64,000 nucleotides of DNA from Escherichia coli (GTDB lineage: Bacteria > Pseudomonadota > Gammaproteobacteria > Enterobacterales > Enterobacteriaceae): NCBI RefSeq assembly GCF_003334815.1, contig NZ_QOWO01000020.1; one strand, written 5' to 3'. This document shows positions 50,263 through 60,066 of the stretch, one piece after another. Made by a program: the position numbers and the translations under genes. Position 1 is the first letter of the stretch. Every line of letters starts with the position of its first letter. A model generated the notes under the pieces. The model had not been told where the DNA came from. It made no database searches and saw only the letters and a program-made list of their open reading frames with translations.

Positions 50263-51615
50263 ATGAGCCAGAAATTAAAAGTCGTCACTATTGGTGGCGG
50301 GAGCAGCTATACCCCGGAGTTACTGGAAGGATTTATTAAGCGTTATCACGAATTGCCGGTCAGCGAATTATGGCTGGTGGATGTCGAAGGTGGTAAAGCG
50401 AAACTGGATATTATTTTCGATCTCTGCCAACGGATGATTGATAACGCTGGCGTCCCGATGAAGCTTTATAAAACGCTGGATCGCCGCGAAGCATTGAAAG
50501 ATGCTGATTTCGTTACTACCCAACTGCGCGTTGGCCAATTACCGGCGCGTGAACTGGATGAACGTATTCCATTAAGTCATGGTTATCTTGGTCAGGAAAC
50601 CAACGGCGCGGGCGGTTTGTTTAAAGGTCTGCGTACCATTCCGGTGATTTTTGACATCGTAAAAGATGTCGAAGAACTTTGTCCGAATGCATGGGTGATT
50701 AACTTCACTAACCCGGCGGGAATGGTCACTGAAGCCGTTTATCGTCATACCGGATTTAAACGCTTTATCGGCGTGTGTAATATTCCGATCGGCATGAAGA
50801 TGTTTATTCGCGATGTTCTGATGCTGAAAGACAGCGATGATTTATCTATCGATTTGTTCGGCCTCAACCATATGGTGTTCATTAAGGATGTGCTGGTAAA
50901 TGGCAAGTCGCGCTTTGCCGAATTGCTTGATGGTGTGGCGTCAGGGCAGTTAAAAGCGTCCTCTGTAAAAAATATTTTCGATCTGCCATTTAGTGAGGGC
51001 TTAATTCGTTCGTTGAATCTGCTGCCATGTTCTTATCTGCTGTATTACTTCAAGCAGAAAGAGATGCTGGCTATTGAAATGGGCGAATACTACAAAGGCG
51101 GCGCACGAGCGCAGGTAGTACAGAAAGTCGAGAAACAACTTTTTGAGCTGTATAAAAATCCTGAGCTGAAAGTTAAGCCGAAAGAACTGGAACAGCGCGG
51201 TGGGGCTTATTACTCTGATGCAGCATGCGAAGTGATCAACGCTATCTACAACGACAAGCAAGCAGAACATTACGTTAATATCCCGCATCATGGGCAGATT
51301 GATAATATTCCGGCAGACTGGGCAGTAGAAATGACCTGTAAGCTGGGGCGCGATGGCGCGACGCCACATCCGCGCATTACGCATTTCGATGATAAAGTAA
51401 TGGGGCTGATTCACACCATTAAAGGCTTCGAGATTGCTGCCAGTAACGCCGCACTTAGCGGAGAATTTAACGATGTGTTACTGGCGCTAAACCTTAGTCC
51501 GTTGGTGCATTCCGATCGCGATGCTGAGCTGCTGGCACGCGAGATGATTCTGGCGCACGAGAAATGGCTGCCAAACTTTGCCGACTGCATCGCAGAGCTT
51601 AAAAAAGCACATTAA
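50263..51615 (+). CDS. chbF: 6-phospho-beta-glucosidase, glycoside hydrolase family 4 (450 aa)
   Basis: ORF track. N-terminal NAD-binding GGGSSYTPE motif typical of GH4. Confidence 0.96.
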   Translation: MSQKLKVVTIGGGSSYTPELLEGFIKRYHELPVSELWLVDVEGGKAKLDIIFDLCQRMIDNAGVPMKLYKTLDRREALKDADFVTTQLRVGQLPARELDERIPLSHGYLGQETNGAGGLFKGLRTIPVIFDIVKDVEELCPNAWVINFTNPAGMVTEAVYRHTGFKRFIGVCNIPIGMKMFIRDVLMLKDSDDLSIDLFGLNHMVFIKDVLVNGKSRFAELLDGVASGQLKASSVKNIFDLPFSEGLIRSLNLLPCSYLLYYFKQKEMLAIEMGEYYKGGARAQVVQKVEKQLFELYKNPELKVKPKELEQRGGAYYSDAACEVINAIYNDKQAEHYVNIPHHGQIDNIPADWAVEMTCKLGRDGATPHPRITHFDDKVMGLIHTIKGFEIAASNAALSGEFNDVLLALNLSPLVHSDRDAELLAREMILAHEKWLPNFADCIAELKKAH

Positions 51616-56437: not shown

Positions 56438-57829
56438 TTAATGGTGTGCCAGTTCGGCGTCGTCTTCGCTATCCAGAATGGCTTTATCGGTTTGCTTCAG
56501 CCACTGGCTGGTCAGCGTGCCAGCTGTCATCGAGCCACTAACGTTTAACGCCGTACGGCCCATGTCGATAAGCGGTTCAACGGAGATTAACAGCGCCACC
56601 AGGGTTACTGGCAGGCCCATCGCAGGCAGTACAATCAGTGCGGCGAAAGTTGCACCACCACCGACACCGGCAACGCCTGCGGAACTAACGGTAACAATAC
56701 CGACCAGCGTCGCAATCCACATCGGGTCCAGCGGGTTAATGCCAACCGTAGGCGCAACCATCACCGCCAGCATTGCCGGATACAAACCGGCGCAGCCGTT
56801 CTGACCAATGGTTGCACCGAAAGAGGCGGCGAAACTGGCGATGGATTCAGGAACGCTCAGACGACGCGTTTGTGCTTCCACATTCAGTGGGATAGACGCA
56901 GCACTGGAACGGCTGGTAAAGGCAAACGTCAGCACAGGCCATACCTTACGGAAGTACTTCAGCGGACTCACGCCATTAATGCCCAGCAGAATGCCATGCA
57001 CTGCAAACATAATCAGCAGACCGAGGTAGGACGCGACAACGAAACTTCCCAGTTTGATGATGTCTTGCAAGTTAGAACCTGCAACCACTTTGGTCATTAG
57101 AGCCAGAACGCCGTAAGGGGTCAACTGCATGACCAGGCGAACCAGTTTCATCACCCAGCTTTGTAGGGTATCGATAGCGGCTAAGACGCGTTCACCTTTC
57201 GGCGCATCATCCTTCAGCAGTTTCAATGCAGCTACGCCGAGGAATGCGGCAAAAATTACCACGCTGATAATTGACGTCGGATTGGCTCCGGTAAGATCGG
57301 CAAACGGGTTTTTCGGGATAAAGGACAAGACCAGCTGCGGAACGCTCAGATCAGAGACTTTACCAACATAGTTACTTTCAATGGCGTTCAGACGTGCAGT
57401 TTCTGCACCACCCTGAACCAGACCTTCAGCCGTCAAACCAAACAGGTTGGTGACCAGCACACCGACCAGCGCCGCAATCAGCGTGGTAAACAAAAGCGTA
57501 CCGATGGTCAGAAAACTGATTTTGCCTAACTGAGATGCGTTATGCAGACGGGCAACCGCGCTCAGAATAGAGGCGAAGACTAACGGCATAACGATCATTT
57601 GCAGCAGTTGAACATAGCCGTTACCAACGATGTTAAACCACTGTACAGAATCTTTAAGTACCTGGCTGTCAGAACCATAAATGGTATGCAGGGCAAGGCC
57701 AAAAACCACACCCATCACCAGACCCACCAGCACTTTTTTCGCCAGACTCCACTGTTTATGGCGGGTCTGAGCCAGCGCAAACAGCAGTACAACGAACACC
57801 ACGATGTTCGCAATTAATGGAAAGTTCAT
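56438..57829 (-). CDS. tcyP: L-cystine transporter, dicarboxylate/amino acid:cation symporter family (463 aa)
   Basis: ORF track. Multi-pass membrane protein. Formerly ydjN. Confidence 0.93.
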
Positions 57830-57961
57830 CCCCGTTCTCCTGATCTTATTATTTCTATCACTGCGTAGCAGTCATAGTGTTGGCGCAAGATTAACAGAAC
57901 TGTGAGCTGGCTCTTATATTCAAATGGAATTGCTTATTCCAGAAAGGTGATTTTTGCCTTT

Positions 57962-58552
57962 TTAGTATTCAACCTGATGCTTAATAAGCCGATGAAACTG
58001 GATCTGCAAGGTATTGATCATTTGCGATGACCAACGAACAGCGCTGTTCTCGGGTAATGAATGGGGCATCCATACCGACCAGACAAATAATGCCATGCAG
58101 ATAAAACGTTCCAGTTGGTTGCCCTTTTGGGGAACCAGGATAGGCAAGCGGAAACGCCAGCGGCATGGCCAGAGCAGGGGAACACCGGCGGGTGTCAGCA
58201 TATCGGCAAGTATGTGGCTCAAATAACCCAGCACCATTCCTTGTAGCGCATCAGCCGGAATGAACCAGCCTTCCGGAACCTTAAGGTAAAAGGTTGCCAG
58301 CAGCGCAAATACCGCCAGCAGACTGTGGGTAAAACCACGATGCCCAAAAGCGCGGGCGATCGGTTTTGATATCCATTTTAATCGCTGCCCAAGAAACGAC
58401 TTTGGGTGATCGATGTCCGGTAACAAACACGTCAGGATTGCGGAAGGGACAATATGCCACCAGTCACCCTGTGCCAGCACGGGCGTCAGCTCGGCATTTT
58501 TGGCAAATACCGCACAAGCAATAGAAAAGAGAAGGTGACCTTCCGCCGTCAT
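57962..58552 (-). CDS. ydjM: SOS-regulated inner membrane protein YdjM (196 aa)
   Basis: ORF track 57962..58564 trimmed to ATG 58552 (MTAEGHLLFSIA...). Two LexA boxes lie immediately upstream. Confidence 0.88.
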   Translation of the reverse strand: MTAEGHLLFSIACAVFAKNAELTPVLAQGDWWHIVPSAILTCLLPDIDHPKSFLGQRLKWISKPIARAFGHRGFTHSLLAVFALLATFYLKVPEGWFIPADALQGMVLGYLSHILADMLTPAGVPLLWPCRWRFRLPILVPQKGNQLERFICMALFVWSVWMPHSLPENSAVRWSSQMINTLQIQFHRLIKHQVEY

Positions 58553-58566
58553 GATAAAACTCACTA

Positions 58567-58604
58567 AACTGTCGATACGTACAGTATAGGATTTTTATAC
58601 AGTG
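58567..58604 (-). promoter_or_regulatory. tandem LexA (SOS) boxes overlapping the ydjM promoter
   Basis: Minus strand reads CACTGTATAAAAATCCTATA then TACTGTACGTATCGACAGTT. The second is a perfect CTGT-N8-ACAG. Lies 15-50 bp upstream of the ydjM ATG. Confidence 0.8.
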
Positions 58605-58671
58605 CACGGAAGTGGTGACGGTGTAACTCTTTCTCTTAAATTGACGATTAATCCGTCAGTTGAATGCAATT

Positions 58672-58710
58672 TCAGATAAAGAACCAGGGGCAGCGAGATC
58701 ACTGCCCCTG
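58672..58710 (-). terminator. intrinsic terminator downstream of hxpB (yniC)
   Basis: Stem CCAGGGGCAG (58683-58692) / CTGCCCCTGG (58701-58710). On the minus strand this is followed by TTCTTTATCTG. Confidence 0.7.
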
Positions 58711-58714
58711 GTCA

Positions 58715-59383
58715 TTAACCGAGAAGGTCTTTTGCGGTGAGTTCTGTCAGCGATGAGAGTTTGACGTCTGCTAATACAAAACGTGGATCATTTTGCGCTT
58801 CTGGCGCAGGAACGACGATGGAACGCATGCGGGCTGCTTTAGAGGCGATCATGCCATTTACCGAATCTTCCAGCGCTACGCAGGTCAGAGGGTCAACGCC
58901 CAGTTTTGCTGCGCAGTCGAGATATACTTGCGGATGCGGCTTGCTGTAAGGCAGTTTTTCGGCCGAGGCGAGGGCATCGAAACTGTCGCGTAAGTCAAAC
59001 ATGGTCAACACTTTTTCCAGCATATGTAGTGGTGACGCGGAGGCCAGTCCCACCAATAAACCTTGTTCTTTGCATAACGCAACGGCTTCGCGCACGCCTG
59101 GTAATAATGGACGTGTCTCTTCAACCAGTGAAATGGCACGGGCAATAACCCGTTCTACTACTTCCTGACGGCTTGGCCCATTCCACGGTTGCCGGGCGTA
59201 CCAAAGATCGACCACCATATCGATGCGTAAACCTAAGGTGTCCGGCAGCTCGTTACGACGGGAGATATCCACCCCCAGGCTTGCCATCACATCCAGTTCG
59301 GCTCGATCCCATAAAGGTTCTGAGTCGATAAGTAATCCATCCATATCAAAAATTGCAGCAAGAATCTGACGCGGGGTTGACAT
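58715..59383 (-). CDS. hxpB: HAD-family sugar phosphatase (hexitol phosphatase B / 2-deoxyglucose-6-phosphatase, 222 aa)
   Basis: ORF track. HAD motif I DMDGLLIDSE near the N-terminus. Formerly yniC. Confidence 0.93.
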   Translation of the reverse strand: MSTPRQILAAIFDMDGLLIDSEPLWDRAELDVMASLGVDISRRNELPDTLGLRIDMVVDLWYARQPWNGPSRQEVVERVIARAISLVEETRPLLPGVREAVALCKEQGLLVGLASASPLHMLEKVLTMFDLRDSFDALASAEKLPYSKPHPQVYLDCAAKLGVDPLTCVALEDSVNGMIASKAARMRSIVVPAPEAQNDPRFVLADVKLSSLTELTAKDLLG

Positions 59384-59529
59384 TACAACCTCTCCTTTAG
59401 AGCATTATGTGTAAGGTATTAAGCCGTGCTTATGATTAAGCGCCTATCATATCGCCTTTAAAGAATGGGCGAAAACAGATATCTACAGGTAAACTAAGTG
59501 AAACGACGCGTCTTAATCAAGGAGAACTC

Positions 59530-60066
59530 ATGACGTATCAACAAGCTGGACGCATTGCTGTTTTGAAAAGGATTTTGGGTTGGGTGATTTTTATACCTGC
59601 ATTGATCTCTACATTGATTTCTTTGCTGAAATTTATGAATACCCGGCAGGAAAACAAGGAAGGCATTAATGCGGTCATGCTCGACTTTACTCATGTCATG
59701 ATCGATATGATGCAGGCGAATACGCCTTTTTTGAATCTATTCTGGTATAACTCCCCGACGCCCAATTTTAATGGTGGCGTGAACGTTATGTTCTGGGTGA
59801 TTTTCATCCTGATTTTTGTCGGACTGGCGTTGCAGGATTCCGGTGCCCGGATGAGTCGCCAGGCGCGCTTCTTGCGGGAAGGTGTTGAAGATCAACTCAT
59901 TCTGGAAAAAGCCAAAGGGGAAGAGGGGCTAACGCGTGAACAAATTGAGTCCCGTATTGTTGTTCCGCACCATACTATTTTCCTGCAGTTTTTCTCACTG
60001 TATATCCTGCCGGTTATTTGTATTGCTGCAGGTTATGTGTTCTTTTCTCTGCTTGGGTTTATTTAA
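59530..60066 (+). CDS. yniB: inner membrane protein YniB (178 aa)
   Basis: ORF track. GGAG Shine-Dalgarno. Hydrophobic segments. Confidence 0.88.
   Translation: MTYQQAGRIAVLKRILGWVIFIPALISTLISLLKFMNTRQENKEGINAVMLDFTHVMIDMMQANTPFLNLFWYNSPTPNFNGGVNVMFWVIFILIFVGLALQDSGARMSRQARFLREGVEDQLILEKAKGEEGLTREQIESRIVVPHHTIFLQFFSLYILPVICIAAGYVFFSLLGFI

Follow-up and report, generated by a model that had tools for sequence, protein, structure and literature searches.

How is ydjM, a gene of the Escherichia coli SOS regulon, controlled from the short spacer in front of its start codon, and do both of the LexA boxes that can be distinguished there take part in this control? The question arose from a stretch of 64,000 nucleotides (referred to below as the window), in which two adjacent boxes, one a perfect CTGT-N8-ACAG and the other degenerate, had been noticed in an initial annotation made from the sequence alone. 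The window is E. coli K-12-type DNA and corresponds to the reverse complement of the MG1655 sequence at ~1.81 Mb. According to the MG1655 annotation the gene order is yniB, hxpB (b1727), ydjM (b1728) and tcyP, all of which are encoded by the minus strand here. Of 5426 complete E. coli genomes, 5424 contain a 1551-base piece surrounding the boxes with an identity of at least 95%, and many E. coli genomes are 100% identical to the window across the box region.

The coding sequence of ydjM (b1728 of MG1655; 196 aa) occupies positions 57962-58552 of the minus strand, with an ATG start codon at 58552. The mechanical list of open reading frames contained a longer, 200-aa form that begins with a GTG at 58564, only 2 nt from box 1. 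This form was rejected: across the 80 orthologous loci described below, position 58564 is G in 37, T in 25, C in 13 and A in 5, whereas the ATG at 58552 is invariant, which indicates that the annotated 196-aa form is the right one. An overlapping ORF of 47 aa (58464-58607, minus strand), whose GTG start is unconserved, was assigned as spurious.

The same-strand neighbour located 5′ of ydjM is hxpB (yniC; 58715-59383, minus strand). Folding energy calculations revealed an intrinsic-terminator-like hairpin with a 14-bp stem (58682-58713, minus strand; -33.1 kcal/mol, z = -7.4), which begins 2 bases past the hxpB stop codon. The boxes had been placed immediately after the hxpB terminator. The hairpin is indeed real, but 77 nt separate its end from box 2, which makes this wording loose. 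Screening of positions 57800-59600 for known RNA families yielded no matches. In T16R and seven further listed strains of E. coli, hxpB is split into two pseudogene pieces by the insertion of IS903B (IS5-like), at a site corresponding to window positions ~59030-59070; the ydjM operator and the gene itself are undamaged in these strains. In many other genera, a gene encoding a short-chain dehydrogenase (adh_short), not hxpB, is found 5′ of ydjM, as in Pantoea and in the consensus of the 80 loci, while the gene of the SDF-family transporter (tcyP) is retained on the 3′ side across those genera. Since the upstream neighbour differs and the control region is conserved, the latter travels with ydjM and not with the neighbour.

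The two boxes are unequal. Box 1, proximal and strong (TACTGTACGTATCGACAGTT; 58567-58586, minus strand), was recognized by sequence, weight matrix and conservation; its core CTGTCGATACGTACAG (58569-58584) is a perfect CTGT-N8-ACAG and the only one within the 64-kb window. Box 2, distal and weak (CACTGTATAAAAATCCTATA; 58585-58604, minus strand), was recognized by sequence, weight matrix and identity with a published site; it combines a good left half-site, CTGT, with a degenerate right half that has CCTA in place of ACAG. Compared with the SOS box core (CTGT-N8-ACAG with an AT-rich centre), box 1 corresponds in full and box 2 by half. The 20-mers of the two boxes overlap by two bases (TA) and their centres are 18 bp apart; with 16-mer cores separated by 2 bp and kept as a pair, they form a tandem in the sense of boxes no more than ~10 bp apart. 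The minus-strand sequence through both boxes reads ...gtgCACTGTATAAAAATCCTATACTGTACGTATCGACAGTTtagtgagttttatcATG. The distance to the ydjM ATG is 14 nt from the end of box 1 and 52 nt from the far end of box 2, in good agreement with the 15-50 bp that had been given, and the range 58567-58604 proposed for the pair is the exact union of both 20-mers. The description as one perfect and one degenerate box was borne out by the sequence. Both boxes occupy a promoter/5′-region position and are conserved in orthologous promoters.

The count of the bare pattern CTGT-N8-ACAG is not significant by itself: one copy was found against 0.67 expected per 64 kb, and at least one match occurred in 47 of 100 shuffled sequences. 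It was therefore replaced by a test based on a weight matrix and shuffling. A symmetric matrix was constructed from 18 published E. coli LexA sites (table in PMC3009722), with ydjM left out; the training sites span 13.4-28.1 bits. Within the 64 kb, box 1 ranks second with 15.0 bits, which is inside the training range. Box 2 ranks third; its 13.1 bits are slightly less than those of the weakest training site (13.4 bits) and close to those of recN box 3 (13.8 bits). The match of rank 4 reaches 11.4 bits. In 300 dinucleotide-preserving shuffles, matches of at least 13 bits appeared 0.32 times per window and those of at least 14.9 bits 0.10 times per window, and none of the 300 contained two matches of 13 bits or more within 40 bp of each other.

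The cho (ydjQ) box, at positions 45262-45281, is the best match in the window; it reaches 20.6 bits, or 19.3 bits with a matrix trained without cho. Its minus-strand sequence, CACTGGATAGATAACCAGCA, is identical to the published site, and it is located 13 nt upstream of a GTG (45248) that opens a 295-aa ORF. The window therefore holds a second known SOS gene, 13 kb from ydjM. Two lower-scoring LexA-like matches are probably due to chance: one of 11.4 bits (42884-42903), placed between ORFs of 322 aa and 161 aa (astE and spy by position), and one of 10.8 bits (51146-51165) inside a 450-aa ORF, which has the 15-mer CTGTATAAAAATCCT in common with box 2.

To follow the boxes across related bacteria, one genome per species was scanned, which gave 80 loci of Enterobacteriaceae encoding YdjM proteins that are 84-99% identical. 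Box 1 is present in all 80 species, with CTGT or CTGG as the left half and ACAG as the right half; its score is 11.5 bits at one locus (L055) and 14.8-21.3 bits at the other 79. In 77 of the 80 species the CTGT of box 2 is kept at an offset of exactly 18 bp from box 1, the exceptions being two loci in which it has been lost (L012 and L026) and one with a 1-nt insertion (L060). This strict register is held while the distance between box 1 and the ATG varies between 13 and 23 nt. In every species the right half of box 2 reads CCTA. Loss of both boxes from most orthologous promoters, which was looked for as a refutation, is contradicted by these data. Both boxes, in unchanged register, could also be distinguished in Erwinia amylovora and Shimwellia blattae, and box 1 also in Pantoea; in one Pantoea, box 2 has lost 1 nt.

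Among E. coli genomes, 5423 of 5426 contain the 101-nt operator region, with at least 99% identity in 4279 of them. Only one of the 5423 genomes, that of E. coli NIPH17_0036 (NZ_AP024561.1), is less than 95% identical across the operator. It shows a 7-bp deletion (AAATCCT) in box 2, aligned to positions 58587-58593, which is due either to natural mutation of the operator or to faulty assembly. As the left half of box 2 could double as a promoter hexamer and its right half is under a constraint other than LexA, conservation is in itself no proof of contact of LexA with box 2.

The feature is already known, ydjM having been a two-box gene of the LexA regulon since 2000. The paper of that year reportedly examined lexA+, lexA(Def) and lexA(Ind-) strains by Northern blotting, and a ChIP-chip study from 2005 is said to have detected LexA at ydjM in vivo. 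That tandem LexA-binding sites at E. coli ydjM were reported from experiment by Fernandez De Henestrosa et al. (2000) is stated in PMC4951493, and the ydjM LexA site printed in PMC4576408, CACTGTATAAAAATCCTATA, corresponds letter for letter to box 2. In agreement with the initial annotation, which treated the gene as LexA-controlled, ydjM is included in the SOS gene list of a 2019 review (PMC6590174). The experiment it had suggested, i.e. comparison of induction in the wild type and in a strain with non-cleavable LexA, has been published: AZT induces ydjM 2.5-fold, and AZT-treated lexA3(Ind-) cells express it at an 8.6-fold lower level (PMC11228462). The transcript rows of a multi-omics time-course table of SOS genes show ydjM mRNA rising to ~2.6 (PMC11002266). 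Two boxes were also described for Salmonella ydjM, at 14 and 32 nt and with heterology indices of 9.12 and 12.85 (PMC8072944); the distances measured here at two Salmonella loci (L031 and L048) are the same 14 and 32 nt. Fluorescence of a Salmonella ydjM::gfp fusion was undetectable (PMC8072944), which fits the tight repression that, according to the initial annotation, a double box may imply. Across studies the induction of ydjM is modest, 2- to 6-fold. LexA binding and SOS inducibility, whose absence had been named as the outcome that would speak against the proposal, are thus both on record, and published evidence likewise contradicts equal ydjM mRNA levels in lexA(Def) and lexA+ cells. The observation is confirmed and its interpretation supported.

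No promoter was found by a consensus scan of the region, and the supplementary data of two Cappable-seq studies, searched for a ydjM transcription start, contained nothing for it. Scoring of sigma-70-like hexamer pairs placed TTCCGT-17-TATACT at the top of the region, with 7.7, which barely exceeds the median of 6.2 for random 181-nt genomic pieces. The candidate -10 hexamer TATACT (58583-58588, minus strand) lies at the junction of the two boxes, and 17 bp upstream of it is a weak candidate -35 hexamer, TTCCGT (58606-58611, minus strand), which matches the consensus at 2 of 6 positions and whose leading TT is invariant in the 80 species. All 80 species have CCTATACTG without change, even the two without the CTGT of box 2 (L012 and L026), and its conservation is therefore not owed to contact of LexA with box 2; both facts favour TATACT as the -10 hexamer. 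The degenerate half of box 2 (CCTATA) is invariant, probably because it helps to form this hexamer. With TATACT as the -10 element, the boxes would span ~-28 to +10 and would act by exclusion of RNA polymerase. Another arrangement, GTTACA-17-(T/C)ACTGT, was considered for an invariant GTTACA found further upstream, but was downgraded, since the ACTGT is lost in two otherwise conserved species and Pantoea has TACTGG.

The region is almost certainly where LexA represses transcription of E. coli ydjM, which is a standard SOS gene. The present analysis supplies the box sequences, the statistics behind them, the strict 18-bp register and the conservation; LexA binding and LexA-dependent induction are taken from published work. 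In undamaged cells, LexA dimers would occupy two abutting operators in the spacer that separates the hxpB terminator from the ydjM start codon. Box 1 would serve as a strong full palindrome and box 2 as a single good half-site, the weak box probably being filled with the help of the dimer on box 1, by analogy with other strong-plus-weak tandem LexA sites. The boxes would cover ~38 bp, most likely including the -10 hexamer TATACT and the transcription start, so that RNA polymerase would be excluded. Following DNA damage, RecA-stimulated self-cleavage of LexA would free the promoter, and ydjM mRNA would increase several-fold. Within this scheme we infer the exact promoter, the cooperativity of the dimers and the effect of box 2 on the tightness of repression.

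The control region extends beyond the boxes. Directly 5′ of box 2 there is a further block (58605-58639, minus strand; core GAGTTACACCGTCACCnCTTCCG), distinguished by its conservation in the 80 species. Within it, GTTACA (58627-58622) is invariant, while CGTCAC (58620-58615) and CTTCC (58612-58608) are invariant or nearly so. The sequence GTTACAnCGTCAC is retained in Erwinia and Pantoea, and Shimwellia shows one change (GTTACC). This block is conserved equally to the boxes and LexA gives no explanation for it; it may be a -35 region or the site of another regulator. A composite control region, in which half of box 2 doubles as the -10 hexamer and GTTACAnCGTCACCnCTTCC (58627-58608) is the putative site of a second regulator, seems to us unlikely. 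If true, it would mean that ydjM receives an input independent of LexA, e.g. from envelope or membrane stress. The presence of ydjM among the genes up-regulated upon expression of the membrane toxin TisB, reported in a 2024 preprint, fits such a composite arrangement.

We consider it unlikely that only box 1 works as a LexA operator and that box 2 is mainly promoter DNA carrying one CTGT, with little or no contribution to repression. In favour of this reading, the CCTA right half remains invariant even at the two loci where the left CTGT has been lost, which points to a constraint other than LexA, namely the TATACT -10 hexamer. The register is also shifted by 1 nt in Leclercia and Pantoea, and matches as good as box 2 (13.1 bits) are expected by chance 0.32 times per window. 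Against this stand the left CTGT, held at exactly 18 bp in 77 of the 80 species, the tandem LexA-binding sites reported from experiment (according to PMC4951493), the heterology index of Salmonella box 2 (12.85), which is inside the range accepted by PMC8072944, and the existence of a box of like design in recN (box 3, 13.8 bits).

LexA could also act as a roadblock downstream of the promoter. In that case CTGAAA-17-ATTAAT would direct initiation near 58640, and elongation would be stopped by LexA at ~+35 to +72. These hexamers were predicted for a peak located in the yniC-ydjM spacer by genomic SELEX with the RpoD holoenzyme (Shimada et al.; PMC3946193), and they are present at ~58675-58647, with a score of 3.3 in the hexamer scan. 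However, the ATTAAT -10 scores below 0 in that scan, and the 58675-58647 stretch is unconserved outside Escherichia, a different gene ending there in most other species. Conserved sequence begins only at ~58639, and the invariant TATACT at the junction of the boxes is part of it. A roadblock seems quite improbable. Finally, the notion that the box matches are chance resemblances with no regulatory role, which the expected 0.67 bare CTGT-N8-ACAG copies per 64 kb might suggest, has a negligible probability and is already refuted by the absence of a pair this strong from 300 shuffles, by the conservation of the boxes in 80 species and by the published LexA-dependent expression (lexA3).

The LexA-repressed control region precedes a gene whose product is one of the few SOS proteins without a known function. 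YdjM had been described as a membrane protein whose role in the DNA damage response is unknown, and the 2024 preprint likewise refers to it as a poorly characterised inner membrane protein. It matches Pfam PF04307 (E = 2.4e-35) and the NCBIfam equivalog NF008651, 'metal-dependent hydrolase' (374 bits against a cut-off of 216), i.e. a full-length family match above the curated threshold, and is a putative inner-membrane metal-dependent hydrolase. The residues H6, D46, D48, H49, H71, H76, H113 and D117 are invariant. No sequence relative of YdjM was found in the PDB. The AlphaFold2 model is only moderate (pLDDT 66, pTM 0.60), and a Foldseek search of the PDB with this moderate model returned nothing below E = 1. 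Deletion of ydjM did not significantly affect TisB toxicity (2024 preprint).

LexA also controls a PF04307-type protein of Staphylococcus aureus, encoded in the SAOUHSC_02424 operon (PMC11442139), which means that SOS control of the family recurs in a distant phylum. The S. aureus gene differs from ydjM in having a single Firmicute-type box (CGAAAATATGTTCG) and not a tandem, and in forming part of a three-gene operon with UDPGP and HlyIII genes. LexA control of this family member suggests a membrane-related role in the damage response. As a regulatory finding, the ydjM operator offers nothing new; what is added here is the invariant CCTATA half with its probable -10 role and the equally conserved block 5′ of box 2.

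The locus and the sequences are those of E. coli K-12, in which Fernandez De Henestrosa et al. (2000; cited in PMC4951493) described the ydjM boxes, and no difference was noted. Double LexA operators had been called uncommon, and this holds among the chromosomal genes that were checked, where lexA and recN are also tandem. The operators of lexA resemble those of ydjM in that a conserved pair of close boxes lies just 5′ of the start codon (PMC4951493). Unlike ydjM, lexA has two strong boxes (20.7 and 18.2 bits), spaced by 21 bp (~two helical turns) instead of 18. The double SOS boxes of colicin genes differ in belonging to plasmid-borne toxin promoters; at colicin promoters, cooperative filling of a weak site beside a strong one is described (PMC4951493). 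The gene recN of MG1655 carries three boxes, with offsets of 22 and 18 bp and scores of 25.2, 17.7 and 13.8 bits. Its boxes 2 and 3 are like those of ydjM in their 18-bp offset, their strong-plus-weak composition (17.7 and 13.8 bits against 15.0 and 13.1 bits) and the terminal TA common to both 20-mers. In both genes the degenerate half abuts the strong box, but the weak box is upstream in ydjM and downstream in recN, and recN differs further in its third, very strong box (25.2 bits) situated 22 bp further upstream. The 18-bp register may be a recurring geometry of tandem LexA sites, and the conserved strong-plus-weak layout that ydjM has in common with recN provides a clean natural case for studies of cooperative LexA binding.
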